Assembly: GCA_034433275.1 (NCBI GenBank)
Contig: DAOUAT010000463.1
Span: 1,090 to 33,089, forward strand
DNA from: Anaerolineae bacterium
Lineage (GTDB): Bacteria; Chloroflexota; Anaerolineae; CG2-30-64-16
Length of the DNA stretch: 32,000 nucleotides
Reading direction: 5' to 3'
Below the pieces are notes generated by a model, which saw only the letters and a list, made by a program, of their open reading frames with translations, was not told the DNA's origin and ran no database searches. The position numbers and the translations under genes are program-made. Of this stretch, positions 6,751 through 26,886 are shown piece after piece (within the stretch, counting starts at the first letter, position 1; each line of letters starts with the position of its first letter).

Positions 6751-6761
6751 AAATGACCTCT

Positions 6762-7094
6762 CTAGCAGACAGGGAACACTGCGCCCATCACGCAGCCGGT
6801 CACGGCCAGGATTTCATCGGCGCTGGCGAAATGGAGCCGGCGCCAGCCCTGGCCCAACACGGTTTGCACCGCTTTCGGGTCGACGCGTCGCGCGCCGGGC
6901 ACGCATGCCATGACGTAGCGGCCTGCGCGACCAGCTTCGCGCAGCAGGACCGACTTGACCATCTCCGCCAGCACGACCCCGCGTTGCTGAGCGGCCGCTT
7001 CAACCGGGAAGACCGCCCCGCCGTGGTGTGGCCGGCGGTAGGGGATGCCGCGGGCGTCTGAGATGTCGGTAATATGGGTCTTGTGAACTGGCAT
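6762..7094 (-). CDS. YbaK/EbsC-type aminoacyl-tRNA editing domain protein, apparently C-terminally truncated
   Basis: From ATG 7092..7094: ...VKSVLLREAGRAGRYVMACVPGARRVDPKAVQTVLGQGWRRLHFASADEILAVTGCVMGAVFPVC*. It aligns to the central part of YbaK and ends right at the GGxSPxG-like loop. About 50 C-terminal residues of the fold are missing, and the next gene starts 12 nt later. Confidence 0.45.
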   Translation of the reverse strand: MPVHKTHITDISDARGIPYRRPHHGGAVFPVEAAAQQRGVVLAEMVKSVLLREAGRAGRYVMACVPGARRVDPKAVQTVLGQGWRRLHFASADEILAVTGCVMGAVFPVC

Positions 7095-7116
7095 GCTTCG
7101 GATTGCCAGAGCGGCG

Positions 7117-7764
7117 CTAACCCTCCCGAACGTCTTGAATGCGAAGATCCGGCAAGGCCTGCAGGGTTTCGACAAGGACATTTTTCGGCAGGTTCGTCAC
7201 CTTCAGCACTGAGGCCCAAACGGCCGGATCGTCAGAGGGATAGGTCGCGAATACCGAGAGATAGCCGCCCTTTTGCGCAATGGCGGTGCTGATGCGTGCC
7301 ACCTCACCGGCACGGTCGGGCTGCAAGACAGTCACACGTACACCCTCGCGTCGGGCGCCCAGCAAGTTCACCATCACGTTGAAGATGTCATTGTCGCTGA
7401 TGATGCCCACCAGATCGCTCCCGCACATCACCGGCAGGCAGCCGATCTTTTTGTCGGCCATGATGCGGGCCGCCTCCTCCAGGGCCACATCTTCTTCGAT
7501 GGTGAACACTTTCTTGACCATGATGTGATGCGCCTTGATCTTGGCCAGCGCATAATTCACTGTAGCCTGGCTTACGCTGATCATGCCGGCAGGAATGGCC
7601 TGCAGCAATGAACGCTGAGTGATCAGTCCCACCAGCCTGCCGTTTTCATCCAGGATCGGCAGATGTCGGAAGTTGTGCTGTTGCATTAAAGCTTGCGCCT
7701 CGGTCACCGACATGTCCGGCCGGCCACAAACAGGATCAGACGTCATGCAATCTTTGACGAGCAT
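7117..7764 (-). CDS. CBS-pair + ACT domain protein (AcuB-like)
   Basis: The start is taken at ATG 7762..7764, 4 nt after the metF2 stop. MLVKDCMTSDPVCGRPDMSVTEAQALMQQHNFRHLPILDENGRLVGLITQRSLL plus a second CBS (HHIMVKKVFTIEEDVALEEAARIMADKKIGCLPVM..LVGIISDNDI), then an ACT-like VRVTVLQPDRAGEVARISTAIAQKGGYL. Confidence 0.75.
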   Translation of the reverse strand: MLVKDCMTSDPVCGRPDMSVTEAQALMQQHNFRHLPILDENGRLVGLITQRSLLQAIPAGMISVSQATVNYALAKIKAHHIMVKKVFTIEEDVALEEAARIMADKKIGCLPVMCGSDLVGIISDNDIFNVMVNLLGARREGVRVTVLQPDRAGEVARISTAIAQKGGYLSVFATYPSDDPAVWASVLKVTNLPKNVLVETLQALPDLRIQDVREG

Positions 7765-7768
7765 ACGA

Positions 7769-8710
7769 TCACTCCGAAAAAACAGTCTGCGGGGGCCTGG
7801 GATACAGGCCGGCGCGCGTGACGATCTCGGGCACGGCCTCGGCCCAGTGAACAGCCATGATATGAACGCCAGCGACCCCAGGAATCTGGCGCACCTGCTC
7901 GATGATCTCGACACAGATGTGGATGCCCTCTTCGGGCTGGGCGGCCTTCGGGGTCTTGCTCATCCGCTGGACGATCTCGTCGGGCACCTCCATGCCGGCC
8001 ACTTTGGTCGCCATGAAGTTGGCCTGTCCTGCCGACTTGACCGGTCCGACCCCGGCCAGGATGTAGACCTGCCTGTCCAGGCCCAGGTCGCGCACGCGAG
8101 CCATATAAGCCTCGAATCGTTTCACGTTGTAGATCAGTTGAGTCTGCACAAAACGCGCGCCCGCGGCCACCTTCTTGCCCAAACGCAACGGCCGATAGTC
8201 GAAAGGCGGCGCAAATGGATTGGCCGCTGCGCCGATGAACAACTGCGGCGGCAATGTGACCGACCGCCCGTTGTCCAAGGCGCCGTGCTCGCACAAGTTG
8301 CGCGCCATGCGGATCAGGTGCATGGAGTCCACGTCGTAGACACTCTTGGCTTCGGGATGGTCGCCCCAGATGCCGTGGTCGCCGCTCAAACAGAGCAGGT
8401 TGCGGATACCCAAGGCGGCCGCGCCTAACAGATCGGCCTGGATCGCCAGGCGGTTACGGTCGCGGCAGGTCATCTGGGCGACTGGCTCAATACCGTGGCG
8501 GAGCAAGATCGCCGCCACAGGAATGCTGGCCATCCGCACGCTGGCCGCCTGATTGTCGGTGACATTGACCGCGTCGGCGTAGTTGCGCAGGGTCTGCGCG
8601 TCGCGGGCAATTGCTGCCAGGTCTACCCCCTTCGGGGGCGAAAGCTCCGCGGCGACGGCAAATTGGCCGGCTTGCAACACCGCCTCCAGGTGGCTGATGG
8701 GAGTGGGCAC
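7769..8710 (-). CDS. metF: Methylenetetrahydrofolate reductase, acetogen-type small MetF (copy 2); start uncertain (GTG 8710 or upstream 8764)
   Basis: ...AAELSPPKGVDL...VNVTDNQAASVRMASI...QMTCRDRNRLAIQADLLGAAALGIRNLLCLSGDH...FIGAAANPFAPP...FVQTQLIYN.... It is a clear paralogue of the 11541..12527 gene. Confidence 0.85.
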   Translation of the reverse strand: MPTPISHLEAVLQAGQFAVAAELSPPKGVDLAAIARDAQTLRNYADAVNVTDNQAASVRMASIPVAAILLRHGIEPVAQMTCRDRNRLAIQADLLGAAALGIRNLLCLSGDHGIWGDHPEAKSVYDVDSMHLIRMARNLCEHGALDNGRSVTLPPQLFIGAAANPFAPPFDYRPLRLGKKVAAGARFVQTQLIYNVKRFEAYMARVRDLGLDRQVYILAGVGPVKSAGQANFMATKVAGMEVPDEIVQRMSKTPKAAQPEEGIHICVEIIEQVRQIPGVAGVHIMAVHWAEAVPEIVTRAGLYPRPPQTVFSE

Positions 8711-8711
8711 G

Positions 8712-9482
8712 TTAGAATTCCTCGATGATCGCTTGACGGATGGCTTCTTCGGTGGTCGCACCACTCAACTTTGGGTGTCCGTTGATGAAGACACCGTAGG
8801 CCACGCCGTAACGTTGCAACGTCTCGGGGCTGAGCACTTCGTGACGAACCACCACACGCTCCCCAAACTCGCGCGCGACGTCCAACAAGAGCATCTGGGT
8901 TGCAGTTTCGAAGGGACAGAGGTAGCCAGCCAGGATCAGGATCTCCACGGGCAGGCCACGGCGAGGTTGGAGGCGCGGCTCAAAGGGCCGGACGCTCACC
9001 TGGGGCTGGCCCAACGGCAGATAGAGCAACCTGCGGTCACCGGCTTCGTGCACAACTGTGAAGCCGCGGGCCAGGTAATGGCGGTAGTGCATCTGATCTT
9101 CGCGCGTGGTGGCTTCCACCAGGATGCCCTTGCTGCCCTGGTCGCGCACGGCGGCCTCAAAAGTCGCGAACAATTGCCGCCCCAGGCCCTGTCCCTGATG
9201 CCGGCGCTGCACCCACTCGCAGTAGAGCACGGCCACCCCCGGCTCGATCTCATAGGGGACCAGGGCCCGTTCCGACGCTGCGTAGTAGAGCTGGCCCACC
9301 GCAACGCCGTTGGCATCCTGCACGTGGTAGCCTTCGACGTAACGGCCCAGGTTTTGGCTCACCCAGGTGCGACAGACGTTGAGCGCAGCAGGCCAGGGCG
9401 TGGGCACTTCGGCCGTGCAACAAAAAGCCTGTTGGGCCTCTCCCGCGCTCTCAATCCGTTTTACAATCACTTGCCCGTCCAT
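8712..9482 (-). CDS. GNAT N-acetyltransferase fused to a C-terminal thioredoxin-fold domain
   Basis: The start is taken at ATG 9480..9482. The GNAT core is ...VAVLYCEWVQRRHQGQGLGRQLFATFEAAVRDQGSKGILVEA...YLARGF. The C-terminal VEILILAGYLCPFETATQMLLLDVAREFGERVVV...YGVFINGHPKL looks like a small thioredoxin-like fold with a single Cys (CPFE). Confidence 0.6.
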   Translation of the reverse strand: MDGQVIVKRIESAGEAQQAFCCTAEVPTPWPAALNVCRTWVSQNLGRYVEGYHVQDANGVAVGQLYYAASERALVPYEIEPGVAVLYCEWVQRRHQGQGLGRQLFATFEAAVRDQGSKGILVEATTREDQMHYRHYLARGFTVVHEAGDRRLLYLPLGQPQVSVRPFEPRLQPRRGLPVEILILAGYLCPFETATQMLLLDVAREFGERVVVRHEVLSPETLQRYGVAYGVFINGHPKLSGATTEEAIRQAIIEEF

Positions 9483-9505
9483 CCTTCCCCCCACAGCCGC
9501 TTTGT

Positions 9506-9976
9506 TCAGCCCTTGCGCACCACGCGCAGTCGCCGGTCCACGCCCCTCAGCAGATTGATCCACGACGACGTGCCCGGGAGCTGCCAGTTGACGGGCGGCT
9601 GCTCGGTCAACAGCTCCTGGCCCCAAATCGTCATCTTCTGGCTGCGCTCATAGGCATCCACCCAGACGCAGCGCATCTCCGGCTTGACCTCGCAGTGGCC
9701 GTTCAGGCGCACGCCACCGCACGGCCCGTTGCGCAGGTTCTTGGGACAGGTCATCGGGCAGGTCATGCCGGTGTAGTGCAGGATGCACTGGCCGCACAGG
9801 CGACAGTCGAAGACCGCCTTCTTGCTCAGATCCTCGAAAGGCAGGATCACCTTCGCAACGCGGTCGTAGCCGACGCGGGCAAAGAACGGATTCAGCCGGT
9901 GCAACACCCACTCGGCAGCCTGCCACAGGCGTTCGAGGGCGTGTGGATGATCTTGAATGATGCGGCGGAGGCCCAT
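9506..9976 (-). CDS. Short MetV-like protein (methylene-THF reductase C-terminal zinc-ribbon-like domain only)
   Basis: The start is taken at ATG 9974..9976, 2 nt after the hdrCB stop. ...FDCRLCGQCILHYTGMTCPMTCPKNLRNGPCGGVRLNGHCEV...CVW... parallels ...CQACGDCILDLTGGICPIARCSKQLLNGPCGGSQKGKCEV...CAW... in MetV (12541..13218). Confidence 0.7.
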   Translation of the reverse strand: MGLRRIIQDHPHALERLWQAAEWVLHRLNPFFARVGYDRVAKVILPFEDLSKKAVFDCRLCGQCILHYTGMTCPMTCPKNLRNGPCGGVRLNGHCEVKPEMRCVWVDAYERSQKMTIWGQELLTEQPPVNWQLPGTSSWINLLRGVDRRLRVVRKG

Positions 9977-9978
9977 TC

Positions 9979-11403
9979 CTAATCCACCAGCCCCTTCTGG
10001 CGCAACGCCGGCCGCGGGTCCACCAGGTTCTTCTCCAGGAGCGCCGTTTTCTCCCCCAACCCGAAGGCCAGCGCTGCAAGCTGCGTTGCATACAGCACCG
10101 GCATGGCGAAGCCCAGATCTTTGATCTGTGCCTGGCGGCCGTCCAGGTTGACGTGGCACAACGGACAAACGGTGACAACCACATCCGCGCCGCGCTCCCT
10201 GGCATTGCGCAGCACCTTGGCCGTCATCTGATGGGCCAACGGGGTTTGAGTCAGGCCCAAGGATCCGCCGCAACAATCGGTCTTGTAGTCCCACATCACC
10301 GGCTCGGCGCCGAGCCGACGCATCAGGTAGTCCATGTCCATGGGATACTCCGGATGCTCGGCGCCGGTGATCTCAGCCGGCCGGGTGATGTAGCAGCCGT
10401 AATAGCAGGCCACCTTCAGTCCGCTCAACGGTTTTTCCACCGCCCTCTCGATCCGATCCAACCCCGCCTTTTCGACTAGCGTCTCCACCAGGTGCATGAC
10501 CCGCACCTTGCCCGCATACTGGTAACCGATCTCCTGGGTGATCTGCTGCGCCATCTCTGGGTTGTGGGCCATCTCGTGGGCCGCGGTTTTGAAGCGGCTA
10601 TAGCAGGCAGCGCAGGGCGTGGTGACCTCCTCCAGGCCCATCTGCTCGATGATGGAGAGGTTGACCACCGGATACCTGGTTGCCAGGACGCGGTCGGTGG
10701 AGTGCGCCGGGCTGGAGCCACAGCAGATCCAGCCGGGCGGCTCAATCAGCTCCAGGTCGAGCTTCTCGGCGATGGCTTCGATGGTGCGGTGGTATTCGCT
10801 GGCCGACGAATGAAGCGAACAGCCGGGGTAGTAGGCAACCCGGGTGGGCGCAGCTTCCACCGCCTTAACCTGCCCGGGCTTAGGCGGCCGGGTGGGCAGC
10901 GAGACCAGATGCAACTTGCCCCGCTTGAGCATCTCCACCGCCATGTCCATATCTTTGAACAGGTTGCGGTTGAGCAGGTTCAAGCCGGCCATCAGCCCGA
11001 CTTCGTGGAGGCGGCCCATCAGCTTCACATCCATCAAGAAAAGGCGTGCGAAGCGATCCACCTCGGGGACGGCGGCCGGGATGCCCCGGCGACGGGCTTC
11101 GATGCGCAGCGCATCCATGACGGCCGCTATGTCAATGCCCTGGGGACAGCGCGTGGTACACGTCTCACACGAGGCGCACAGCCAGATGGCCTTGCTCTCC
11201 AGCACCGAAGCGTCTCCTAACTGCACGCTGCGCATCACCTGGTTGGGGGTCAAATCGAAATACTCGGCCAGGGGACAGCCGCTGGTGCACTTCAGGCACT
11301 GATAGCACAAGTAGGCGTTCTCGCCGACGATGCGCTGGATCGCCGCGGCCAAAGGTTCGGCTGTGGCCGGCGATGCAGCGGTGGTTGCTTTCATTATAGG
11401 CAT
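9979..11403 (-). CDS. Heterodisulfide reductase-like iron-sulfur protein, HdrC-HdrB fusion (HdrD-like): 2x[4Fe-4S] domain plus two CCG domains
   Basis: The start is taken at ATG 11401..11403, with GAGG 7 nt upstream. CYQCLKCTSGCP and CASCETCTTRCP are the ferredoxin motifs. YYPGCSLHSS...WICCGSSP and CYYGCYITRP...TDCCGGSLG are the two CCG domains. Confidence 0.85.
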   Translation of the reverse strand: MPIMKATTAASPATAEPLAAAIQRIVGENAYLCYQCLKCTSGCPLAEYFDLTPNQVMRSVQLGDASVLESKAIWLCASCETCTTRCPQGIDIAAVMDALRIEARRRGIPAAVPEVDRFARLFLMDVKLMGRLHEVGLMAGLNLLNRNLFKDMDMAVEMLKRGKLHLVSLPTRPPKPGQVKAVEAAPTRVAYYPGCSLHSSASEYHRTIEAIAEKLDLELIEPPGWICCGSSPAHSTDRVLATRYPVVNLSIIEQMGLEEVTTPCAACYSRFKTAAHEMAHNPEMAQQITQEIGYQYAGKVRVMHLVETLVEKAGLDRIERAVEKPLSGLKVACYYGCYITRPAEITGAEHPEYPMDMDYLMRRLGAEPVMWDYKTDCCGGSLGLTQTPLAHQMTAKVLRNARERGADVVVTVCPLCHVNLDGRQAQIKDLGFAMPVLYATQLAALAFGLGEKTALLEKNLVDPRPALRQKGLVD

Positions 11404-11446
11404 GTCATACCTCGTAATCAGCGGCAAGGAGACCTAACCCCCCCAA

Positions 11447-11499
11447 CCCACTTCCCCGAGGGGAAGTGGGAGCGGCCCTTCCTCCCCTGGTAGGGGAGG
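11447..11499. repeat. Two adjacent GC-rich perfect hairpins between metF1 and hdrCB (possible intercistronic terminator or RNA-processing structure)
   Basis: CCCACTTCCCC-GA-GGGGAAGTGGG (11447..11470) and CCTCCCCT-GGT-AGGGGAGG (11481..11499). Confidence 0.45.
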
Positions 11500-11540
11500 G
11501 GCCGGAGGAGAGATCCATCCACCACCGGCCGGGGGAGGGG

Positions 11541-12527
11541 TTAATCCACCACCGGCCGCGGCAAGAGGCCAGCCCCCTCGACAAGCGGCTTCACAGCTTC
11601 TTCCCACTCGATGGCCATGATGTGGATGCCGGCGACACCGGGGATCTCCCGGATCTGCTGAATCTGCTCGATGCAGATCTTGATGCCGGCATCGCGCCAG
11701 GCGGCCGCGCGCGCTTTCTTATCTTCTTTGGGAATGTTAGCAACGGCCGCTTCCATGCGATCCACGTATTCGTCGGCGACGATCATGCCCGGCACCTGGT
11801 CGCGCATGTATTTGGCCGCGCCGCTGCTCTTAAGCGGCCCCACGCCGGCCAGGATCTTCACTTTCTCGTGTATGCCCAGGTCCACGACCCGCTTCATGTA
11901 CTCCCGGAAGCGCGGGATGTCGTAGATCAGCTGTGTCTGGATGAAGTCCGCGCCCGCGGCAGCTTTCTTGGCCAGACGGTAGGGTCGGAACTCGAACGGG
12001 TCGCCGAAGGGATTGGCCGCCGCGCCGATGAAAAAGCGCGGGCCGCCGCCTTTGATCTCCTCGCCGCACTGGAATTTGCCTTCATCGCGCAGGCCCTTGA
12101 CGATTTGTACGAGCTGCAGCGAGTCCACGTCGTGGACGTTTTTGGCGAAGGGATGGTTGCCGAATGACTGATGATCGCCGGTCAGGCAGAGCACGTTTTT
12201 GATCCCCAGCGCACTCGCACCCAGCAGGTCGGCCTGCATGGCCAGCCGGTTGCGATCGCGGCAGGTCATCTGAATGATCGGCTCCAGCCCTGCGCGCAAC
12301 ACCAACACGCCGGCCGCAATGCTGCTCATGCGGACGATGGCCGTCTGGTTGTCAGTCAGGTTAACCGCGTCCACGACCCCCTTGAGCAAGGCCGCTTTCT
12401 TGCGGATGACCTCGGCATCATGGCTCTTGGGCGGCCCCAACTCGCCGGTGACCGCGAAGCATCCTTTGGTCAACACGCGCTCCAGGTTGCTGCCCGCCCA
12501 ATAACCGTTCGTTGAAATGTCAGACAT
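11541..12527 (-). CDS. metF: Methylenetetrahydrofolate reductase, acetogen-type small MetF (copy 1)
   Basis: The start is taken at ATG 12525..12527, preceded by AAGGAGG. MSDISTNGYWAGSNLERVLTKGCFAVTGELGPPKSHD...VNLTDNQTAIVRMSSI...QMTCRDRNRLAMQADLLGASALGIKNVLCLTGDH...FIQTQLIYD.... Confidence 0.9.
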   Translation of the reverse strand: MSDISTNGYWAGSNLERVLTKGCFAVTGELGPPKSHDAEVIRKKAALLKGVVDAVNLTDNQTAIVRMSSIAAGVLVLRAGLEPIIQMTCRDRNRLAMQADLLGASALGIKNVLCLTGDHQSFGNHPFAKNVHDVDSLQLVQIVKGLRDEGKFQCGEEIKGGGPRFFIGAAANPFGDPFEFRPYRLAKKAAAGADFIQTQLIYDIPRFREYMKRVVDLGIHEKVKILAGVGPLKSSGAAKYMRDQVPGMIVADEYVDRMEAAVANIPKEDKKARAAAWRDAGIKICIEQIQQIREIPGVAGIHIMAIEWEEAVKPLVEGAGLLPRPVVD

Positions 12528-12540
12528 AGCCAGGTCCTCC

Positions 12541-13218
12541 TTATTCTTCCGCCAACCGCAAATCGTCCCGCACAATCCGGCGCGGGCCACCATCACGGCT
12601 GGTACGCCAGTCTTTGGACGGCTGAACTTGCAGCAAACGATCGAGCATCCCCAGCGCGCCCATCCGCTCCCAGATCAACTGCCAGGCGCAAGGGGTTTCC
12701 TCGCTCACCTCGCACTTGCCCTTTTGCGAGCCGCCGCACGGCCCGTTGAGCAGCTGTTTCGAGCAGCGTGCAATGGGGCAGATGCCGCCGGTCAGGTCGA
12801 GGATGCAGTCGCCGCAGGCCTGGCAGCGCTCCTCCCAGATGCCCTGCTCGGTGGGCAGGCCCATGAAGCGGGTATTCAGGCCGGGCAACACACGCTTGTC
12901 GGGGAAACGCTCAGCCAACGTCTGCACGCCGACACCACAGCCCAAGGAGAGGATGGCGTCGTAATTGGCCCACCGCTCGCGCAAGGGATCAATGTACTCC
13001 CACTCGCATTGGCGTTGAACGGTCACCTCGTCCATCGCGATCCCGTGGCCGTCCAGCCGGGTGGCCATGCGCAGCGCCGATGCCAGGATGCCGACCTCCT
13101 TTTCGCCGCCCGCCAGGCAGACGGTGACGCAGGTGCCGCAGCCCACCACAAGCACCTTTTGGTAGCTTTCGAGCATCTCTTTGATTTCGGCCAGCGGTTT
13201 TTGTTCAGCAACAATCAT
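12541..13218 (-). CDS. metV: MetV (methylene-THF reductase-associated zinc/iron-sulfur subunit)
   Basis: 225 aa. N-terminal VLVVGCGTCVTVCLAGGEKEV, and C-terminal CQACGDCILDLTGGICPIARCSKQLLNGPCGG. Its ATG overlaps the mvhD1 stop (ATGA at 13215..13218). Confidence 0.85.
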   Translation of the reverse strand: MIVAEQKPLAEIKEMLESYQKVLVVGCGTCVTVCLAGGEKEVGILASALRMATRLDGHGIAMDEVTVQRQCEWEYIDPLRERWANYDAILSLGCGVGVQTLAERFPDKRVLPGLNTRFMGLPTEQGIWEERCQACGDCILDLTGGICPIARCSKQLLNGPCGGSQKGKCEVSEETPCAWQLIWERMGALGMLDRLLQVQPSKDWRTSRDGGPRRIVRDDLRLAEE

Positions 13219-13670
13219 TCCTCACCTCCGACGGTATCTTTCTTCGCAAAGTGCCGACCCAACGGATTAGGTCCGAGTTTCCGAATGTGCGCGTCCATCT
13301 CGGTTGCAATCTCGGCGAAACGCGCGCCCATGGCCGCTGACAGGTTGACCATCTGGACGCGTTCGGCCCCCAAACCGATCTGGTTCAGCAGGTCACGCAC
13401 GTACTCGATGCGTTTTTTGGCTTGCAGATTACCTTCCAGGTAATGGCACTCTCCGGGCAGTCAGCCAGCGGCAAAGACGCCGTCGGCGCCCGCCTCGAAG
13501 GCGTGCAACACGTGCAGCACGTCGAGCTTGCCGGTGCAGGGCAGCTCGAAAACCTTCACCGAAGACGGGTATTGGATGCGCAGGCCACCTGCGAGATCGG
13601 CTGCCGCATAGGCACAATGATGGCAGCAAAAGGCAATGATGCGCGGCGTCCAGCCAACGTCTTCGCTCAT
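13215..13670 (-). CDS. mvhD: MvhD-like protein (methyl-viologen-reducing hydrogenase delta subunit family) with in-frame TGA at 13461..13463: predicted selenocysteine
   Basis: Track ORFs 13461..13670 and 13215..13400 are in the same frame (456 nt in total). Read-through gives ...LHAFEAGADGVFAAG-[TGA]-LPGECHYLEGNLQAKKRIEYVRDLLNQIGLGAERVQMVNLSAAMGARFAEIATEMDAHIRKLGPNPL.... This aligns residue-for-residue with the paralogue (18587..19021) ...LDAFEHGADGVYIVG-C-PIGNCHHVRGNERARKRIERAKKLLDEIGIGGQRLEIYFVSGGMGETFARVAREMTDRIQALGPNPL. Confidence 0.8.
13423..13448 (-). promoter_or_regulatory. Candidate bacterial SECIS stem-loop downstream of the mvhD1 UGA
   Basis: On the mRNA: UGA-N16-AUUACC-UGGAA-GGUAAU, a 6-bp stem (13444..13439 / 13433..13428). 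It is extendable by UGC/GCA across a small internal loop. The apical loop contains GG and lies about 26-30 nt from the UGA. Folded by eye. Confidence 0.45.
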
Positions 13671-16600
13671 TGCAATACCTCCTCGAACAGGACGTCAATC
13701 TTCGCCAGGACCTGCGCGTCGGTATAGTGCATCAGTTGAATGGCCCGGGCCGGGCAGGCCGCCGCACACGAGCCACAACCGTGACAAAGGGCCGCCTCGA
13801 TCTGCGCGGCGCCCACGATGCCGCCAACGCCGGTGAGCGACGCCACTACGCGCGGGGCATCATAAGGGCAGGTGCGCACGCAGGTCAAGCAGGCCACGCA
13901 GCGCGCGTCATCCACGACCGCCACGCGGCCGCCGACCTCAAGGGTATCCTTGGAAAGGAGCGTGGCCGCGCGCGCTGCGGCCGCCTGGGCCTGGACGATG
14001 CTCTCCGCCAACAGCTTGGGATAGTGCGCCAGGCCTGCCATAAAGATGCCCTCGGAGGAGAAATCCACCGGCCGCAGCTTGACGTGCGCCTCCAGGAAGA
14101 ACCCCTCCATATCCACCGAGACCTTCAGCCGCTTGCTCAATTCGCGCGCACCTTCGCTGGGCACCACCGACATGCTCAACACCAACAGATCGGGCCGCAA
14201 GACCATCTCACGGCCCAGGGGCGGCTCCCAAACTCGCACCTCGAGGCCGGTAGATTGATCAGCCGGTAAATTCAGTAGATCACGATTTCGATGCTCCAAG
14301 CCGGTCTGCCCGCCCTGGCTACGCCACGCGGGCCAGGGTGACCAGCGGTTGAGGGTCACAGACCCCCTCTGAGCCTGAATCTGTGCTCCACTGACATTCA
14401 TAGACTGGGCGCCAGACAATGTGTTGTGCATCGCAGATCCCTGGGCGGCGATTGTCACCTGGGGCTTACGATCGAAGTCGTAGCGCACAAAGCGCACTCC
14501 GGCCCGCCGCGCCTCGGTATACAACCGTTCCTTGAACCCATAGGTGCGGATGTCCCGATAGAGCACCGTGATCTCCGCGGCGGGGTTAAGCCGTTTGAGC
14601 ATCAGCGCGTTCTTCAGCGCCGTGGTGCAGCAGATGCGGGCACAGTATTGCTCGGCCGGGCCAACACACTGGATCATGACAACGGATGACGGGTGCTGGG
14701 TATCCGGTATTGGGGAATGCTCAATACCTGATGCCCGATTTGCCAGCCACGCCTCGAACTCTTGCTGCGTTAGAATCCTCGGGTCGCTCCCATACCCGTA
14801 CTCGTTCCCGCGATACTCCTGGCCGCCGGTAGCGACGATCGTTGCGCCGTGGTACACCTCGAAACGGCGGAAGGTGGCGCCCAGGTCCTGTTGCAGGACC
14901 GACGTGAAATTGCCCTGAACCCCGCCAGTCTCCACCAGCTCTGTCTGCAGATGGAGGTTGATCAACGGATGGGATTCGACGCGATGGATCAGGCTGGTCA
15001 GGTACTCATGAACATTGGATATCTGGCATTGGGTATAAGAACCAACATCCACTACCGACTGCCCAAGACCATGTTCCAACCCCAAGTCGCGCAGCGTGTA
15101 GTGCACCTTGCGCAGGTTGCCCCCCAATTCCCTGCTCCGCTCCGCCAGGTGCACCGGGAAGCCCTGTTCGGCCAGGGTGAGGGCAGCCGTCATGCCCGCC
15201 GCGCCGCCGCCGATGACCAGGACGCTCTTGCAGGTCGTCAGCGGCGTCGTGTGCAGCGGCTGGAGCCGGGCCGCGCGCGCAACGGCCATGCGCACCAGCT
15301 CCTTGGCTTTGGCTGTGGCTGTCGGCCGGTCGTCGGAGTGTACCCAGGAGCACTGGTTACGAATATTGGCCATCTCGAATAGATACGGGTTCAGCCCGGC
15401 CGCCCGGATGCTGCTCTGGAACAGCGGCTCATGGGTCAGCGGCGTGCACGACGCGACGACGACTCGATTGGCCCCTAACTCCTTCACTTTCTCGGTGATG
15501 TGTATAATGCTGTCCTGCGAGCAGGTATAGAGATTGTGCTCGGCATGGATGACGTGGGGCAGCGAACGAGCATATTCGGCCACCGCGGGCACATCCAGAA
15601 AGCCGGCGATGTTCGATCCGCAGTGGCAGACGAAAACAGTTACCCGCGGCTCCTCATGGGTTACATCGCGCTCCGGCGGGTATTCCGGCACACGGGTCAG
15701 CGTGCCGCGCGCACGCGCCAGCAATGCGCCAGCCGCGGCCGCCGCGCCGCTCGCCTCCACCACCGATTCGGGGATATCCTTGGGTTCGCGGAACGGGCCG
15801 ACCGCGTAAATGCCGGGCTTGCTGGTCTGCAATGGATCGAACAGAACAGTGTGGCAAAAGCCATAATCATCCAACTCAATGCCCAGTCGCTGCCCCAACT
15901 CCCGCACCTCGGGGGCGACCTCCATGCCAACGGAAAGGACGACCAGGTCGAATTCTTCCTGACGAATAGGCGAGTGGGCGAATGGCGGATCTATCTCCTG
16001 CTGATGCGCTGGTTCGTCCACGTAGCGCAAGATCAAATTGCCGTTGGCCGGGTTCTCTTTGAGCGCCGAAATGCGACAACGGGTGTACTTGATGCCGTAT
16101 TTCTCAATCGCCCGCCGATAATAGGGCTCATAGCCTTTGCTGAAAGCGCGCATGTCCATCATGAAGACATGAACTTCCGTGTCCCGCTCGTGTTCGATGG
16201 CCATGATGGCCTGTTTGGTGGCGTACATGCAGCAAACGGCCGAGCAGTAATCGTGCGACCGGTCGCGCGAGCCGATGCACTGCAAGAACGCGATCTTCCG
16301 CGGTCGGCGACCATCTGACGGCCGCTTCACATGTCCCATGGTGGGACCGGAGGCGCTCATCAGGCGTTCCAGTTGCAACGCGGTGATCGCGTTGGGATAG
16401 CGGCCCCAGCCGAACTCCTCTGCAAGCTCGGCCCGATAGACCTGATAGCCCGGGGCCAGGATGACCGCGCCGACGTTGAACTCGCAGGTGCGTTCGACCA
16501 TATCATGGTCAACCGCGCCCACGCCACACTTGTACCAGCAGCTCAAACACTCGGAGCAGATGCCGCAGGCCAGACAACGGGCAGCCTCGGCCTGGGCCAG

Positions 16601-18553
16601 CTCGGCCGTATAGCCCATCTCAACTTCAGCAAAGCCCTTGACCCGCTGCTCCGGCGGCAGTTCGGGCATGGGCACGCGCGGGGTGATCTTGAGCTCCCCA
16701 CGCTGGATGCGCTCGGCGAGCTCGGCCTGGGTCAGCTTGACCACCGGGAGTTCGGGTTTCGGCTTGGGCTCCAACGCTTCTCCGCGCAGGTAGCGGTGGA
16801 TGGACTCGGCGCACTTATGGCCGCTGGCGACCGCCTCGATCACAAACGCGGTACCGCTCACGCTGTCGCCAGCCGCAAAGACGCCGGGCCGGGTGGCCGC
16901 GAAAGTGTTGGGGTTTATCGCAATGGTGCGTTTGGCGGTCAGCCCCACCCCGGCGTCGGCCGGGATAAACGCCAAACCGGCCCGCTGGCCCACAGAGAAG
17001 ATCACCACGTCGGCCGGCAGCACGTGCTCTGAGCCGGGTACCGTCTCGACCGAGAGCCGGCCCTGGTCATCGAACTCGAAATGCGCTACGCGACGGCACT
17101 CGACACCGCCGGCCCGGCCATTGCTGCCTTCAACCACGCGTACGAAGGTGCGATCGTTGTGAATGACGATCCCCTCATCCAGCGCGGCCTGCACCTCCCA
17201 GGCATGCGCGGGCATGTTCTCGCGGCCTTCCAGGCATGCCATCTGCACCTCGGCCGCGCCCAGGCGGACGGCGGTACGCGCCACATCAATCGCCACGTTG
17301 CCGCCGCCCAGCACCAGCACCCGCTTTCCCTGTATCTGCGATCGGGGATCAGCGCCGACTGATTTACTGAACGCGTCGCCGCCCTGTAGGACTCGCTGAT
17401 TCGCTGATTCGTCCCTCAGCTCGGCCAGCCGCACGTCGCGCAGGAATTGGGTATTGATCAGCACGCCTTCAAGGTTGTTGCCGGGAATCGGCAGGCGAAC
17501 GCCTTCGTGTGCGCCAACCGCAATGAGCACGGCCTTGTAACCCGCATTGAAGAGATCGTCCAGGTTGACAATGGTGGTGTTGAGGCGCAGCTCAACCCCC
17601 AGGTCAACGATATCCTGCACCTCGCGATCCACGATCCAACCTGGCAGGCGATATTCGGGCACGCCGACGCGCAACATGCCGCCCGCCACCGGCAACGCCT
17701 CGAAAACCGTCATCGGGTAGCCCAGCAGGGCCAGGTCTTGTGCCGCGGTCAGGCCACATGGCCCCGCGCCGATGATCGCCACCCGCTCTTCGTACTGCTT
17801 GGGGACAGGGTCACGGGGCACGCGCGGCTGCGCGTATATCGTGTCAGTGACGAAGCGCTTGAGCGCATGGATGTTGACCTGGTCATCCACTTTGCCGCGG
17901 TTGCAGGCATCCTCGCAGCGATGGTTGCAGATGCGGCCACAGATGCCGGGGAAGGGGTTGTCCTCCTTGATCACGCGCAGGGCATCGTCGAAGCGGCCCT
18001 CGCGGATCAGCGCGATATAGCCTTGCGCGCGCTGGTGCGCCGGACAGGCATCGCGACAGGGCGCGATCCCCCGCTTCTCGATGACGTAGGCATTGGGAAT
18101 AGCTTGCGGGTAGAGCTTATGGGCGGCGCGTTGTTGCTTCAGGCCTTCATCGAAATGGGAGGGGATCACCACCGGGCAGACCTGGGCACATTCGCTGCAG
18201 CCGGTGCACTTCGCCACGTCAATGTAGCGCGGCCGCGTGCGCACGATCACGGTAAAATTGCCTGCCGTGCCCCGCAGGCCAGTGACATCGCTGTCTGTCA
18301 GGATTTCGATGTTAAGGTGCCGGCCCGTCTCGACCAGCTTAGGCGAGATGGTGCACATTGCGCAGTCGTTGGTGGGGAAGGTCTTGTCCAGTTGCGCCAT
18401 ATGGCCGCCGATGGCCGACTTGTGTTCCACCAGGTAGACTTTGTAACCGGCCTCAGCCAGGTCAAGGCTGGCCTGCATCCCCGCGATGCCGCCCCCAACG
18501 ACCATCACCGCCCCGATGACGTTTTCTGAAGCGTCGCGACCGTTGCCAGCCAT
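13667..18553 (-). CDS. hdrA: Giant HdrA-family flavo-iron-sulfur protein (1628 aa): HdrA FAD module interrupted by an NfnB/GltD-like NAD(P)H:FAD module, then a second complete HdrA-like unit ('HdrL-like')
   Basis: VMVVGGGIAGMQASLDLAEAGYKVYLVEHKSAIGGHMAQLDKTFPTNDCAMC is the HdrA FAD domain, and CTGCSECAQVCP is a ferredoxin motif. CRDACPAHQRAQGYIALIREGRFDDALRVIKEDNPFPGICGRICNHRCEDACNRG, RVAIIGAGPCGLTAA, KRVLVLGGGNVAIDVA and GVFAAGD form the GltD/NfnB-like part (about 16778..18073). FLQCIGSRDRSHDYCSAVCCMYATK follows. VFVCHCGSNIAG...VVVASCTPLTHEPLF...ANIRNQCSWVH corresponds to the N-terminal domain of canonical HdrA. Then KSVLVIGGGAAGMTAALTLAEQG and MIQCVGPAEQYCARICCTTALK. The C-terminus has CVACLTCVRTCP and CHGCGSCAAACP. 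Its stop overlaps the mvhD1 ATG (ATGA). Confidence 0.85.
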   Translation of the reverse strand: MAGNGRDASENVIGAVMVVGGGIAGMQASLDLAEAGYKVYLVEHKSAIGGHMAQLDKTFPTNDCAMCTISPKLVETGRHLNIEILTDSDVTGLRGTAGNFTVIVRTRPRYIDVAKCTGCSECAQVCPVVIPSHFDEGLKQQRAAHKLYPQAIPNAYVIEKRGIAPCRDACPAHQRAQGYIALIREGRFDDALRVIKEDNPFPGICGRICNHRCEDACNRGKVDDQVNIHALKRFVTDTIYAQPRVPRDPVPKQYEERVAIIGAGPCGLTAAQDLALLGYPMTVFEALPVAGGMLRVGVPEYRLPGWIVDREVQDIVDLGVELRLNTTIVNLDDLFNAGYKAVLIAVGAHEGVRLPIPGNNLEGVLINTQFLRDVRLAELRDESANQRVLQGGDAFSKSVGADPRSQIQGKRVLVLGGGNVAIDVARTAVRLGAAEVQMACLEGRENMPAHAWEVQAALDEGIVIHNDRTFVRVVEGSNGRAGGVECRRVAHFEFDDQGRLSVETVPGSEHVLPADVVIFSVGQRAGLAFIPADAGVGLTAKRTIAINPNTFAATRPGVFAAGDSVSGTAFVIEAVASGHKCAESIHRYLRGEALEPKPKPELPVVKLTQAELAERIQRGELKITPRVPMPELPPEQRVKGFAEVEMGYTAELAQAEAARCLACGICSECLSCWYKCGVGAVDHDMVERTCEFNVGAVILAPGYQVYRAELAEEFGWGRYPNAITALQLERLMSASGPTMGHVKRPSDGRRPRKIAFLQCIGSRDRSHDYCSAVCCMYATKQAIMAIEHERDTEVHVFMMDMRAFSKGYEPYYRRAIEKYGIKYTRCRISALKENPANGNLILRYVDEPAHQQEIDPPFAHSPIRQEEFDLVVLSVGMEVAPEVRELGQRLGIELDDYGFCHTVLFDPLQTSKPGIYAVGPFREPKDIPESVVEASGAAAAAGALLARARGTLTRVPEYPPERDVTHEEPRVTVFVCHCGSNIAGFLDVPAVAEYARSLPHVIHAEHNLYTCSQDSIIHITEKVKELGANRVVVASCTPLTHEPLFQSSIRAAGLNPYLFEMANIRNQCSWVHSDDRPTATAKAKELVRMAVARAARLQPLHTTPLTTCKSVLVIGGGAAGMTAALTLAEQGFPVHLAERSRELGGNLRKVHYTLRDLGLEHGLGQSVVDVGSYTQCQISNVHEYLTSLIHRVESHPLINLHLQTELVETGGVQGNFTSVLQQDLGATFRRFEVYHGATIVATGGQEYRGNEYGYGSDPRILTQQEFEAWLANRASGIEHSPIPDTQHPSSVVMIQCVGPAEQYCARICCTTALKNALMLKRLNPAAEITVLYRDIRTYGFKERLYTEARRAGVRFVRYDFDRKPQVTIAAQGSAMHNTLSGAQSMNVSGAQIQAQRGSVTLNRWSPWPAWRSQGGQTGLEHRNRDLLNLPADQSTGLEVRVWEPPLGREMVLRPDLLVLSMSVVPSEGARELSKRLKVSVDMEGFFLEAHVKLRPVDFSSEGIFMAGLAHYPKLLAESIVQAQAAAARAATLLSKDTLEVGGRVAVVDDARCVACLTCVRTCPYDAPRVVASLTGVGGIVGAAQIEAALCHGCGSCAAACPARAIQLMHYTDAQVLAKIDVLFEEVLQ

Positions 18554-18586
18554 ATCTACCTCCCGAACGGCGGCACGTCTCCTTGC

Positions 18587-19021
18587 CTAGGTAGATTTTC
18601 GTAGCGGATTCGGGCCCAGTGCCTGAATCCGGTCGGTCATCTCGCGCGCCACGCGCGCAAACGTCTCTCCCATGCCGCCGGAAACGAAGTATATCTCCAA
18701 CCGTTGGCCGCCGATCCCGATCTCGTCCAACAATTTCTTCGCCCGTTCGATGCGCTTCCTGGCCCGCTCGTTGCCTCGCACGTGATGACAGTTGCCGATG
18801 GGACAGCCGACGATGTAAACACCATCCGCGCCGTGTTCAAAGGCGTCCAGGATGTACTTGACATCGGCCTTGCCGGTGCAAGGCATCTTCACCAGCTTGA
18901 CGTTGGCCGGATATTGGATGTGCAACGCACCCGCCGTGTCGGCCGACATGTCGGCGCAATAGATGCACAGGAACGCCGTGATCTCGGGCTCGAAACCGTT
19001 GCTACTGTTATCGCTCATCAT
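18587..19021 (-). CDS. mvhD: MvhD-like protein (Cys form)
   Basis: 144 aa. ...ITAFLCIYCADMSADTAGALHIQYPANVKLVKMPCTGKADVKYILDAFEHGADGVYIVGCPIGNCHH.... Confidence 0.9.
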   Translation of the reverse strand: MMSDNSSNGFEPEITAFLCIYCADMSADTAGALHIQYPANVKLVKMPCTGKADVKYILDAFEHGADGVYIVGCPIGNCHHVRGNERARKRIERAKKLLDEIGIGGQRLEIYFVSGGMGETFARVAREMTDRIQALGPNPLRKST

Positions 19022-19079
19022 TCCCCATCCTGAAGGATCCGCTCGTCACACAGTACGCAATGGGCAGCACATGCACGTC

Positions 19080-22000
19080 TTACACCGCCCACGCGCCGGT
19101 CAACTCGCCCGCCAATTGGACATCCAGATAGGCCATGAGCTGGATGGCTTTCGCCGGACATTCGGCCGTGCAGGTGCCGCAGCCCTGACACAATGCCGGC
19201 TCGATATATGCCGCGCCCACGATCTCGCCCACACCGGTCATGTCCGGCCGGATCTGGGGAATGTCGAAGGGGCAGGTGCGCACGCAGGTCAGACAACCGA
19301 CGCACTTGCTCTGATCCACCACCGCGATCGGGCCGCCGTAGTACATAGGCTCCTTGGAGAGCAGTGTGATGGCCCGACCGGCGGCTGCCTGCGCGTTGGT
19401 GATCGCCTCCTCGATAAACTTGGGATAGTGGGCCATGCCGGCCATGAAGATCCCTTCTTCCATGAAGTCCATAGGCCGCATCTTCAGGTGCGCTTCCTGG
19501 AAGAATCCCTCGACCGACAACGGCACATCCAGAATCTGCGCCAGCTCTTCGGTGCCTGGCGCAGGAACGACCGCCATGCTCAGGGCGACCAGACCGGGCG
19601 ACAGGATCATCTCGCGACCGAAAACCTGTTCCCAAGCCCGCACCTCGAGCTTGCCGTCGGCCGCACGGCTTACCTGGGGCAGATGATGCTCGTCATAGCG
19701 CATGAAGACCACACCCCGGCGTCGCGCCTCCGTGTAGAACTGTTCCCGGAAGCCGTAGGTGATCATATCCTTGTAAAGCACATACACCTGACAGTCCGGG
19801 TTGAGCATCTTGACCCGGATGGTGTTCTTCATGGTGTTGGTGCAGCACACCCGGCTGCAATAGTCCGTTTCTGACGGCGGGTGGACGCACTGGATCATCA
19901 CCACCTGCTTGAGTTGCGTGATTTCCTCTGGACGGTGGACGATGATCTCCTCTAGATCGAGCTGGGTTACCACCCGGGGGTCCTGGCCCAGCAGATAGAC
20001 ATCCCCGCGCCATTCCTCGCCGCCGGTAGCTACAATGGTAACGGCATGACGCACCTCGGTCTCGGCATCCACAGGCCCGGCATGAGTGACAATCACTGCT
20101 TGAAAGTCGCCCGTACGGCCGGTGTGCGATTGCACTTCGGAACGCGTCAGCACCTGAATGCGCTCATGGCCGCGCACCCGGTTGACCAGGTCGCGCAGCA
20201 GGCGCTGGGGGTTTTGCCCTTCGGCCACGTAGAAGATATGGCGCAGGTTGCCGCCCAACTGGGCACTGCGCTCCACCAGCGTCACATCGAAACCCGCGTC
20301 GGCAATGGAGAGCGCGGCCTGCATCCCCGCCACACCGCCGCCGATGACCAGCGCCCGGCGCGTCGGCGTTATGCTGAGCTTCTGGATCGGCTGCGCCATG
20401 AAAGCGCGTTCGACCGCCATGCGCACCGTCTCGCGGGCTTTGCGCGTCGCGAGCTCCGGCTGGCTCTCGTGCACCCACGCGCACTGCTCGCGGATGTTGG
20501 CCATCGTCAACAGATACGGGTTCAGCCCAGCCTGGCGGATGACCTTCTGGAAAAGCGGTTCGTGCGTGCGCGCCGTGCATCCCGCAACCACAACCCGGTT
20601 GAGATTCTGCTCGACGATGGCCTGGCGAATGCGTTGCAGATCGGCCCCCTGGCAACCGTAAGCGAGCAACTCGGCATGGGTCACGCCCGGCAACCGTAAG
20701 GCGAACTCCTGGACGGCCCGGGTGTCAATCGTGCCATCAATGGCCGGCTCACAGCGGCAGATGAACACCCCTATCCGCGGCGGCTCATGGCTCACATCCC
20801 TTTCCTCCGGATATTCGTTAGCCGCAGAAAGGAATGGATATTGACGGCTGGAGGGGCTGCTGCCTACCTGGCCTCGCAACAGGCGCATCACCTCGGCGGC
20901 CGCGCCGGAAGCATCCAGGAAAGTCTCGGAGATCTCCTTGGGCGACAGGAAAGTGCCACAGACATACACCCCCGGCACACTGGTTTCCAGCGGCGCGAAC
21001 TTGTCGGTTTGACAGAAGCCGTATGGGTTCAGCTCGATGCCCAGCTCGCCGGCCAGCTCCCTAGCCGAACGCGGGGGCACCGTGCCGAGCGAAAGCACCA
21101 CCAGATCGAACCGCTCCGTGACCATCTGGCCATTGGGGCCGGGATAGTGCAAGATCAGATCCTGAGTAGCGGGGTCTTCTTTGACGTACGAGATGCGCGC
21201 CCGGGTGTACTCCACCCCGAACCGGCGCCGCGCCGACTCGTAGTAGGCGTTGAACTCCTTATTGAACGCCCGCTCATCCATCATGAAGATCTGTGCGTGG
21301 ACGCCGGGCAGGCGCTCTTTGGCAATCATCGCCTCTTTGGTGGCATACATGCAGCAGATAGACGAGCAGTAGGGGTGCTTCTGATCGCGCGAGCCAACGC
21401 ACTGCAGCCAGGCGATCCGCCGCGGACGCTGTCCGTCCGAGGGCCGCAGCACCACCCCCTCCGTGGGCCCCGAACGACTCGCCAGCCGCTCATACTGCAT
21501 GGAGTGGATGATGTTACGATAGCGGCCGAAACCGAGCTCTTCGTACTCATGGGCATCAGTCAACTCGTAGCCCAACGCCATGATGATCGCGCCAACGTGA
21601 ACCTGCGATTCGCGAGCTTCTTCCTTCAGGTCTATACATTGTGTGGGACACACAGTCGCACAACATCCACAATCGTCGCAATAGGGGCCGCGATCAATGA
21701 TGTAGGCATTGGGGATCGAGCGAACGGCCGGTTTATAGGCTGCCTTGCGCGTGGCCAGCTCCTGTTGAAAGCTGCTGGGCAGCGTCACCGGGCACACCAG
21801 CGAACAGAGGTCACAGTTGATGCAGCGCGCCGGGTCCACATAGCGCGGCTCATGGCGCAGAGTCACGTGAAAGTCGCCAGCCTGCCCGGTCACGCCGATG
21901 ACATTAGTCAGGGTCAGCACATGGATGTTCGGGTGCAGGTTGTGATCCTGGAAGGCGGGGGAGATAGCAGGCCGTGTGCAGCCGTAGCCGTGATCCGAGG

Positions 22001-22214
22001 TGCCGCGACACAGCACACAGTCGTGGGTGGGAAACATATAGCCCAATTGAGCCACGCGACCACCCAGGGCCGGCGCGGTCTCGACCAGCCATGCCTGCAG
22101 GCCAGCTTCGGCTAGATCCACAGCCGCCCGCATGCCAGCAACGCCACCGCCGATGACCATCACGTCGCCGGTCCTGCCTTGTGCGCTCACCTGAGAGAGT
22201 GGTAATTCAGTCAT
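19080..22214 (-). CDS. hdrA: HdrA-family flavo-iron-sulfur protein with two HdrA-type modules in one polypeptide (1044 aa), no NfnB-like insert
   Basis: VMVIGGGVAGMRAAVDLAEAG...DCVLC, then CINCDLCSLVCP, CDDCGCCATVCP and WLQCVGSRDQKHPYCSSICCMYATKEA. VFICRCEPAIDG...VVVAGCTARTHEPLF...ANIREQCAWVH follows. Then ALVIGGGVAGMQAALSIADAGF and MIQCVHPPSETDYCSRVCCTNTMK. The C-terminus has CVGCLTCVRTCP and CQGCGTCTAECP. Confidence 0.85.
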   Translation of the reverse strand: MTELPLSQVSAQGRTGDVMVIGGGVAGMRAAVDLAEAGLQAWLVETAPALGGRVAQLGYMFPTHDCVLCRGTSDHGYGCTRPAISPAFQDHNLHPNIHVLTLTNVIGVTGQAGDFHVTLRHEPRYVDPARCINCDLCSLVCPVTLPSSFQQELATRKAAYKPAVRSIPNAYIIDRGPYCDDCGCCATVCPTQCIDLKEEARESQVHVGAIIMALGYELTDAHEYEELGFGRYRNIIHSMQYERLASRSGPTEGVVLRPSDGQRPRRIAWLQCVGSRDQKHPYCSSICCMYATKEAMIAKERLPGVHAQIFMMDERAFNKEFNAYYESARRRFGVEYTRARISYVKEDPATQDLILHYPGPNGQMVTERFDLVVLSLGTVPPRSARELAGELGIELNPYGFCQTDKFAPLETSVPGVYVCGTFLSPKEISETFLDASGAAAEVMRLLRGQVGSSPSSRQYPFLSAANEYPEERDVSHEPPRIGVFICRCEPAIDGTIDTRAVQEFALRLPGVTHAELLAYGCQGADLQRIRQAIVEQNLNRVVVAGCTARTHEPLFQKVIRQAGLNPYLLTMANIREQCAWVHESQPELATRKARETVRMAVERAFMAQPIQKLSITPTRRALVIGGGVAGMQAALSIADAGFDVTLVERSAQLGGNLRHIFYVAEGQNPQRLLRDLVNRVRGHERIQVLTRSEVQSHTGRTGDFQAVIVTHAGPVDAETEVRHAVTIVATGGEEWRGDVYLLGQDPRVVTQLDLEEIIVHRPEEITQLKQVVMIQCVHPPSETDYCSRVCCTNTMKNTIRVKMLNPDCQVYVLYKDMITYGFREQFYTEARRRGVVFMRYDEHHLPQVSRAADGKLEVRAWEQVFGREMILSPGLVALSMAVVPAPGTEELAQILDVPLSVEGFFQEAHLKMRPMDFMEEGIFMAGMAHYPKFIEEAITNAQAAAGRAITLLSKEPMYYGGPIAVVDQSKCVGCLTCVRTCPFDIPQIRPDMTGVGEIVGAAYIEPALCQGCGTCTAECPAKAIQLMAYLDVQLAGELTGAWAV

Positions 22215-22302
22215 GCAGTCCTTCCCCCCGAGTGCGAGGTTGGATCAGATCTACCTCAGATTGTCATCCATGTCTGGCATGTTGTGTATCTCTTATCGCA
22301 CA

Positions 22303-22331
22303 ATTCTATCGTGCAGAAGGACGATTGTCTA
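22303..22331 (-). promoter_or_regulatory. Candidate sigma-70-type promoter for the hdrA2...metF operon
   Basis: The minus strand reads TAGACA (22331..22326), a 17-nt spacer, then TAGAAT (22308..22303). It lies in the only sizeable (229 bp), AT-richer gap of the cluster, about 90 nt upstream of ATG 22214. Confidence 0.3.
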
Positions 22332-22443
22332 TGACGCCCGTCACCTGCCAAAGGGGGGCGTCAGGCGGCTCCTGGCCGACGATCCATGGACACCGGGCGA
22401 AGATCCGGTATAGGGCATCGCGAACTGAATACCCCACAAGCGG

Positions 22444-23328: not shown

Positions 23329-23363
23329 GATCACTCCTTAAGATGTGTAACCGAGTTCGGGGT

Positions 23364-24350: not shown

Positions 24351-24371
24351 GGTGTAGCTCCTTGCTGGATA

Positions 24372-24444: not shown

Positions 24445-24445
24445 C

Positions 24446-25807: not shown

Positions 25808-25825
25808 CCCGCGCCTCCTTGCGCA

Positions 25826-25904: not shown

Positions 25905-25909
25905 TACGT

Positions 25910-26821: not shown

Positions 26822-26886
26822 GGGTTGTCTCCTCCGTTTGCGATTGGTTTGACACAGAAAGTCTTGCCTGGCTGAAAGTGCGCGAC

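Follow-up and report, generated by a model that had tools for sequence, protein, structure and literature searches.

A predicted selenocysteine codon in an mvhD gene of an Anaerolineae bacterium and the hairpin that accompanies it

When an in-frame UGA cuts a bacterial gene in two, is the gene broken, is it a pair of genes, or is the UGA a selenocysteine (Sec) codon? This question is raised by a locus on contig DAOUAT010000463.1 of GCA_034433275.1, the metagenome-assembled genome (MAG) of an Anaerolineae bacterium, of which we analyzed a stretch of 32,000 nt (positions 1,090 to 33,089 of the contig; hereafter the window, in which all positions are counted). The gene in question, mvhD(Sec), lies on the minus strand at 13215..13670 and encodes a member of the MvhD/FlpD family of [2Fe-2S] electron-transfer subunits, with an in-frame TGA at codon 70 (13461..13463, minus strand). 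An inspection of the sequence alone, the original prediction, had proposed that this codon specifies Sec and that a hairpin just downstream serves as its selenocysteine insertion sequence (SECIS). From the comparisons described below, we put a probability of about 0.92 on 13670..13215 being one functional gene in which this hairpin assists the decoding of the UGA as Sec.

A single frame with UGA at a conserved cysteine column

Translation of the minus strand bore out the proposal that one frame is cut by a single TGA: mvhD(Sec) starts with ATG at 13670..13668, contains one in-frame TGA at 13463..13461 and ends with TGA at 13217..13215, with no further stop codon and no frameshift. The read-through product is 151 amino acids long (151 codons plus the stop) and has the protein letters ...DGVFAAG-U-LPGECHYLEGNLQAK around codon 70, while the mechanical list of open reading frames (ORFs) holds the gene as two separate ORFs of 69 and 61 amino acids. 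With Cys placed at the TGA, the product matches Pfam PF02662 (FlpD/MvhD) over positions 1–123 of 123 (E 7e-47; 158.8 bits, gathering cut-off 22.3), and MvhD/VhuD chains in the PDB match it with E-values from 8e-40 to 3e-31. At both ends the gene overlaps its neighbors in an ATGA, first the stop of an HdrL-like gene with the start of mvhD(Sec) (13668..13670/13667..13669) and then the stop of mvhD(Sec) with the start of metV (13216..13218/13215..13217). Both overlaps are typical of intact, translationally coupled operon genes. The UGA inside the mvhD(Sec)/metV overlap is a true stop, 82 codons past the one predicted to be recoded. The ribosome would read UGA at codon 70 as Sec rather than as a stop, and the second UGA (13217..13215), to which no such element was assigned, would end translation.

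The residue that UGA replaces was first apparent from a second MvhD gene in the window. This Cys-containing paralogue (18587..19021, minus strand; 144 amino acids; PF02662, E 6e-44) has the motif GCPIGNCHH and shares 52% identity with mvhD(Sec) over 132 residues. In agreement with the original prediction, the read-through segment GADGVFAAG-U-LPGECHY stood opposite GADGVYIVG-C-PIGNCHH of the paralogue, with TGA opposite the Cys of G-C-PIGNCHH and similarity continuing to the terminal LGPNPL. We then compared orthologues from a scan of one genome per species, which yielded 80 loci (relatives 55–73% identical, re-aligned by tblastn), the closest being that of a Chloroflexota bacterium at 73% identity. 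The codon-70 column held TGA in 57/80 of these loci, TGC or TGT in 23/80 and TAA or TAG in 0/80, and among database homologues Cys is near-invariant there. The TGA forms came from Anaerolineae and other Chloroflexota, Desulfosarcina, other Thermodesulfobacteriota, Deferrisomatales and Acidobacteriota, and included D. variabilis, D. alkanivorans and D. widdelii, all cultured and with complete genomes. Because TGA and Cys codons alternate at the same column across phyla, never with TAA or TAG, we read UGA at codon 70 as Sec, as had been predicted from its position at a conserved Cys.

These data bear on three other ways of accounting for the TGA. The first is that mvhD(Sec) is a pseudogene, an mvhD copy struck by a nonsense mutation, its function being carried out by the Cys paralogue 5 kb away. 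The paralogue does lie in the same cluster, and on the near-identical contig JBBIRH010000008.1 (GCA_037441915.1; 22.5 kb) the gene is called as two genes of 69 and 61 amino acids, just the splitting by automated callers that had been foreseen. Decay is nevertheless effectively refuted by the occurrence of TGA, and never TAA or TAG, at this column in 57 loci across several phyla. In addition, the gene carries neither a frameshift nor an extra stop, the protein past the TGA is conserved, including the invariant Cys75, and the ATGA overlaps with both neighbors are intact. We therefore consider a pseudogene very unlikely.

The second is an assembly or sequencing error that made TGA out of TGC or TGT, for which the metagenomic origin of the assembly could be cited. 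JBBIRH010000008.1, which covers 5660..28188 of the window with 15 mismatches in 19.6 kb (ungapped comparison), was deposited separately and has the same split, and TGA recurs in the 57 orthologous loci of unrelated assemblies, among them the complete genomes of the cultured Desulfosarcina. An error is thus exceedingly improbable. The window, which is longer than JBBIRH010000008.1, would represent another assembly of what is practically one and the same organism.

The third is a true split gene, in which translation stops at the UGA and restarts at the GTG at 13400, and chains of 69 and 61 amino acids assemble into an MvhD-like fold. Such a GTG is present, and both fragments called on JBBIRH010000008.1 have their own Pfam FlpD matches. 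In this case the 20 codons from UGA to GTG (LPGECHYLEGNLQAKKRIEY) would remain untranslated, despite encoding an invariant Cys75, a near-invariant His76 and a near-invariant Gly80-Asn81. Yet these codons are conserved as protein in all homologues, the UGA stands for a conserved Cys and not for a linker, the orthologues show no conserved requirement for a restart codon and the Cys forms are contiguous. Two chains are therefore about as improbable as a pseudogene.

Solved structures further allowed us to place residue 70. Solved MvhD chains and database homologues define five conserved Cys/Sec columns in the product (C16, C19, C45, U70 and C75), of which U70 aligns with Cys67 and C19 with Cys16 of M. 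marburgensis MvhD. A close parallel exists in the Methanococcales, whose archaeal VhuD (subunit delta of the F420-non-reducing hydrogenase; chain 9sfi_K) belongs to the same fold family (E 2e-38) and acts as a [2Fe-2S] adaptor to the HdrA flavin (PMC13518236). Alignment to this chain placed its second non-standard residue, an X that we take to be Sec, opposite U70, so that Sec at this position appears to have a structural precedent. Unlike mvhD(Sec), which has Cys19 there, VhuD carries a second Sec at the N-terminal CxxU site. The NCBIfam VhuD model NF045873 scored mvhD(Sec) at 155.9 bits, below its cut-off of 215; the product is a VhuD homologue and not an equivalog of archaeal VhuD.

A hairpin linked to the UGA

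The original prediction had described a 6-bp hairpin, AUUACC-UGGAA-GGUAAU, 16 nt past the UGA, and we recovered this candidate SECIS core at 13428..13444 on the minus strand; AUUACC (13444..13439) forms the 5′ arm, UGGAA (13438..13434) the loop and GGUAAU (13433..13428) the 3′ arm. The stem can alternatively be drawn with 7 bp and a GGA loop. RNAalifold, given only the orthologue alignment, returned exactly the 6-bp stem and 5-nt loop. In the cell, the hairpin very probably acts as a bacterial SECIS and would recruit the complex of SelB, GTP and Sec-tRNA(Sec) to the ribosome.

We then asked how the hairpin fares in the TGA and Cys forms. In 47 distinct TGA forms it occupied the same columns, with 98.8% of cells paired, whereas in 23 Cys forms these columns were 60.9% paired, no better than shuffled controls. 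All six pairs were intact in 47/47 distinct Sec forms versus 1/23 Cys forms (Fisher p 3e-17). The same was evident at the wobble positions within the hairpin (His CAU, Tyr/Phe UAC/UUC, Leu CUG, Asn AAU), which are fixed in Sec forms but not in Cys forms (p 5e-5 to 7e-10); those just outside it (columns 18 and 39) change freely in Sec forms. These comparisons indicate that selection maintains the stem-loop in connection with the UGA, and its retention in TGA forms only is a further point against a pseudogene. One pair also changes in concert: pair 23-33 is A-U in 32, U-A in 15 and broken in 0 of the 47 Sec forms. The switch from A-U to U-A links a Tyr-to-Phe replacement with a synonymous change of Gly from GGU to GGA, with no half-changed intermediate, and all U-A forms fall within the Desulfosarcina-type clade.

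The published model of the bacterial SECIS (bSECIS) specifies an apical loop of 3–9 nt, an upper stem of 4–16 bp, 16–37 nt from UGA to loop and a minimum free energy (MFE) no higher than -7.5 kcal/mol, as well as a G among the first two loop positions in the pattern N1-G-[G|U]-N-N2 (PMC13188914). Our hairpin has a 5-nt loop (UGGAA), a 6-bp stem, G at loop positions 2 and 3 and a loop that begins 22 nt past the UGA. Orthologues show no, or almost no, variation at the G-G of the loop. The bSECIS pattern check suggested in the original prediction thus agreed with the quoted model, for the MFE only if the lower stem is counted: 13419..13454 reached -8.5 and UGA..+51 reached -10.0 kcal/mol with the lower stem included, and the core hairpin alone -4.5 kcal/mol. 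This lower stem (UGC/GCA and GG/CC around the core; 13419..13454, minus strand) is a weakly supported extension seen in the fold of this sequence, and we dropped it as part of the element, its sequence not being conserved among orthologues.

Decoding of UGA in the host and points on the other side

Is there further evidence that the organism decodes Sec? A second predicted selenoprotein gene lies on the minus strand at 362..1126 and encodes a peroxiredoxin fused to glutaredoxin, in which UGA (991..989) takes the place of the peroxidatic Cys. The context PLAWTPV-U-TSQ contains PxxxTxxU, the motif of known Sec-peroxiredoxins (PMC13188914). The called ORF comprises only the C-terminal 192 amino acids and starts in the middle of the AhpC/TSA domain (partial match), while the read-through product matches AhpC-TSA over positions 1–123 of 124 (E 4e-38). 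In 80 relatives from metagenomes, the column held TGA in 54 and TGC or TGT in 26. The long hairpin past this TGA differs in stem sequence among relatives and is still paired in single-sequence folds. Because this second gene has the same Sec/Cys pattern, the organism very probably decodes Sec. General reassignment of UGA, in turn, is excluded by the fact that TGA ends 14/27 genes in the window, making it the commonest stop.

A remaining alternative is that a standard amino acid is inserted at the UGA of mvhD(Sec), be it Cys, Trp or some other near-cognate, as could occur in a lineage that lost Sec synthesis or under selenium starvation, with the hairpin as a stimulator of read-through. In its favor, Sec insertion at this codon is deduced from sequence. 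On the other hand, the locus shows the classical pairing of Sec with Cys, and Sec members of this family have been established by experiment (PMC13188914), the peroxiredoxin-glutaredoxin gene bears the same signature at its peroxidatic Cys, the geometry and the loop G-G of the hairpin fit the SelB-type bSECIS model, and among ordinary stops in the window UGA is the most frequent. Insertion of a standard amino acid is accordingly unlikely, and Sec would be the residue incorporated.

Several results weigh against this assignment. Taken alone, the hairpin was indistinguishable from chance: its fold z-score in this sequence was -1.0, and ∼20% of the 922 TGA triplets in the window precede a hairpin with 6 bp or more and a bSECIS-like geometry. 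We therefore dropped single-sequence fold statistics as stand-alone evidence, and the significance of the hairpin comes from the orthologue comparison only. Even there, covariation proper is thin, as the switch at pair 23-33 was probably one evolutionary event that carries little weight alone; with only this one covarying pair, the argument rests on the UGA-linked conservation. No SECIS or other relevant Rfam family was detected in a gathering search of the whole window or in a permissive search of 13300..13560, a result expected to say little, as bacterial SECIS elements are gene-specific. Likewise, selA, selB, selC and selD were absent from the window, and ARAGORN detected tRNAs neither in the window nor in 59 related loci. 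The role of residue 70 itself belongs on this side as well. Presumably, C16, C19, C45, U70 and C75 comprise four [2Fe-2S] ligands and one additional Cys. The structural papers on MvhD that we consulted do not state which cysteines ligate the cluster and name only M. marburgensis Cys16 as an additional cysteine, located between cluster and FAD (flavin adenine dinucleotide) (PMC13580544). Because C19, the equivalent of Cys16, is this additional Cys and four columns are left, we take U70 to be probably one of the four ligands, by elimination from the Cys16 statement and the conservation.

Relatives, gene neighborhood and biological meaning

The original prediction had cited MvhD/VhuD as a known selenoprotein family in methanogens and deltaproteobacteria, a precedent that the literature supports (PMC13188914, PMC1794560, PMC5109826, PMC2702500). 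Listings of selenoprotein families include PF02662/COG1908 (FrhD/MvhD/VhuD) (PMC13188914, PMC9312934); by 2006, FrhD/COG1908 was the third most populous one in bacteria, with conversions inferred both from Sec to Cys and from Cys to Sec (PMC1794560). In Desulfococcus multivorans, mvhD (dmul_C28840/50) is split by a UGA with a SECIS, and the genome also encodes a Sec-peroxiredoxin (PMC5109826). In Desulfobacterium autotrophicum HRM2 there are four Sec-mvhD genes (mvhD1/2/3/5), each adjoining hdrA or hdrL, and each Hdr protein group (A, L, D, F) is described as comprising Sec as well as non-Sec paralogues (PMC2702500). mvhD(Sec) resembles these genes of sulfate-reducing Desulfobacterota in encoding a small PF02662 protein next to an HdrA/HdrL-type gene, with a UGA, a downstream SECIS and a split annotation (PMC5109826, PMC2702500, PMC1794560), and the Desulfosarcina orthologues share its UGA column and hairpin position. 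It differs in its host, here a Chloroflexota-like MAG, and the likeness to D. multivorans and D. autotrophicum is one of description, as their Sec column may be a different one. The candidate element lies inside the coding region; archaeal SECIS elements are described as structurally a different class (PMC13188914).

Another bacterial MvhD homologue with Sec and a [2Fe-2S] cluster is BamF of the class II benzoyl-CoA reductase of Geobacter metallireducens, which feeds an HdrA-type bifurcating flavin (bioRxiv 10.64898/2026.04.10.717634). BamF is >100 residues longer than the mvhD(Sec) product. Its Sec19 is described as replacing an MvhD cysteine near the cluster (bioRxiv 10.64898/2026.04.10.717634); equated with M. 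marburgensis Cys16, it would correspond to Cys19 here and hence not to the residue-70 column.

We had been led to expect that a Sec and a Cys form within the same operon are unusual. This did not hold: seven related loci have a GCPIGNCHH-type Cys paralogue 5–7 kb away from their Sec form, and such pairing is documented in D. autotrophicum HRM2 (PMC2702500). We considered whether the two copies form a Vhu/Vhc-like isoform pair used in selenium-replete and selenium-starved cells, and rejected this in view of their 52% identity, distinct motifs, different HdrA-like neighbors and recurring pairing. Two Anaerolineales loci have two UGA-containing mvhD copies (matches 3769-4185 and 10754-11161) ∼7 kb apart, each with the conserved hairpin. 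In six loci of Desulfatitalea and related organisms, a second, more distant MvhD gene (motif GCHPGDCHY, ∼40% identity) follows ∼60–90 nt 3′ of the Cys-form mvhD, in the place of metV.

The order of genes on the minus strand is folD, an HdrA-like gene (1044 amino acids), mvhD(Cys), an HdrL-like gene (1628 amino acids), mvhD(Sec), metV, metF, an hdrBC fusion, a second metV, a GNAT gene and a second metF. An HdrA-like gene stands directly upstream of mvhD(Sec) in 43/50 Sec orthologues, and metV directly downstream in 44/52. In the window, the upstream neighbor is a HdrA-like/GltD-like NAD(P)H flavoprotein of the HdrL type (13667..18553, minus strand; Pfam Pyr_redox_2, Fer4_20 and Fer4), and the second HdrA-like flavoprotein (19080..22214, minus strand; Pfam) lies upstream of the Cys paralogue. 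Downstream follow metV, the small subunit of methylene-tetrahydrofolate reductase (12541..13218; PF12225, DUF5981, E 6e-37), metF, encoding methylene-tetrahydrofolate reductase (11541..12527; Pfam MTHFR; called as 328 amino acids on the near-identical contig), and the HdrBC-like fusion with Fer4 and two CCG domains (9979..11403; Pfam CCG and Fer4_17; gene call of 474 amino acids), all on the minus strand. Also on this strand are genes for RACo (reductive activator of corrinoid protein; 30510..31868), a CooC-like ATPase (29162..29911), a pterin-binding methyltransferase-like protein (25910..26821) and DUF3786 (1584..2198), which together give the whole window the character of a Wood-Ljungdahl gene island. 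Hydrogenase genes for MvhA or MvhG were not detected in it.

A GltD/NfnB-like NAD(P)H module (Fer4_20 and Pyr_redox_2) is inserted in the HdrL-like protein, which resembles the HdrA/glutamate-synthase 'HdrL' fusions of D. autotrophicum (concept PMC2702500). Its gene has no in-frame UGA, although some sulfate reducers have Sec in HdrA and HdrL. The two metV/metF sets (7769..10294 and 11541..13218, minus strand) are not identical, and the GNAT gene (∼8712..9482) interrupts the second set. Two such sets had been described as a feature of DscP3, a single-cell genome of marine Anaerolineae, and of no other genome (PMC5736913).

By homology and synteny, MvhD(Sec) would be a small [2Fe-2S] adaptor that passes electrons to or from an HdrA-type flavin, and could form part of a methylene-tetrahydrofolate reductase complex of the Hdr-MvhD-MetVF type in the Wood-Ljungdahl pathway. 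The grouping of an hdrA-like gene, mvhD, metV, metF and an hdrBC fusion is like that of HdrABC-MvhD-MetFV in Moorella thermoacetica and hdrABC-mvhD-metVF in DscP3, the latter also having two non-identical metV/metF sets (PMC5736913). No Sec is mentioned for the mvhD of either (PMC5736913), whereas the MetVF-adjacent copy here has the UGA.

Why would Sec be kept at residue 70? In M. marburgensis MvhD, His68 and Asp71 of the loop C67-H68-x-x-D71-C72 face a cysteine pair of HdrA (PMC13580544). It is possible, although we hold this with clearly less than even confidence, that in MetVF-linked MvhD the selenium of Sec70 directly ligates the [2Fe-2S] cluster instead of belonging to a redox-active residue close by, that this ligation is selected to tune the electron step between cluster and HdrL flavin, and that the near-identical SECIS across Chloroflexota, Acidobacteriota and Desulfobacterota reflects horizontal spread of an hdrL-mvhD(Sec)-metVF module. 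If true, this would be a bacterial, genetically widespread and natural selenium-ligated iron-sulfur cluster in a folate-dependent pathway. Sec would sit at a probable cluster ligand, near residues recently implicated in the cluster-to-flavin electron transfer of HdrA enzymes, for which the bacterial Sec/Cys pairs offer a natural comparison set.

As mvhD(Sec) belongs to an already well-known kind of selenoprotein, it leaves knowledge of the family unchanged. The practical value lies in correcting the annotation of mvhD(Sec), of the peroxiredoxin-glutaredoxin gene and of many orthologues; in Anaerolineae and Desulfosarcina-type genomes, many of the Sec forms are probably mis-called in this way as well. 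The corrected call restores a complete Hdr-MvhD-MetVF module in metabolic reconstructions of the Wood-Ljungdahl pathway and would mark this Chloroflexota-like organism as selenium-dependent.

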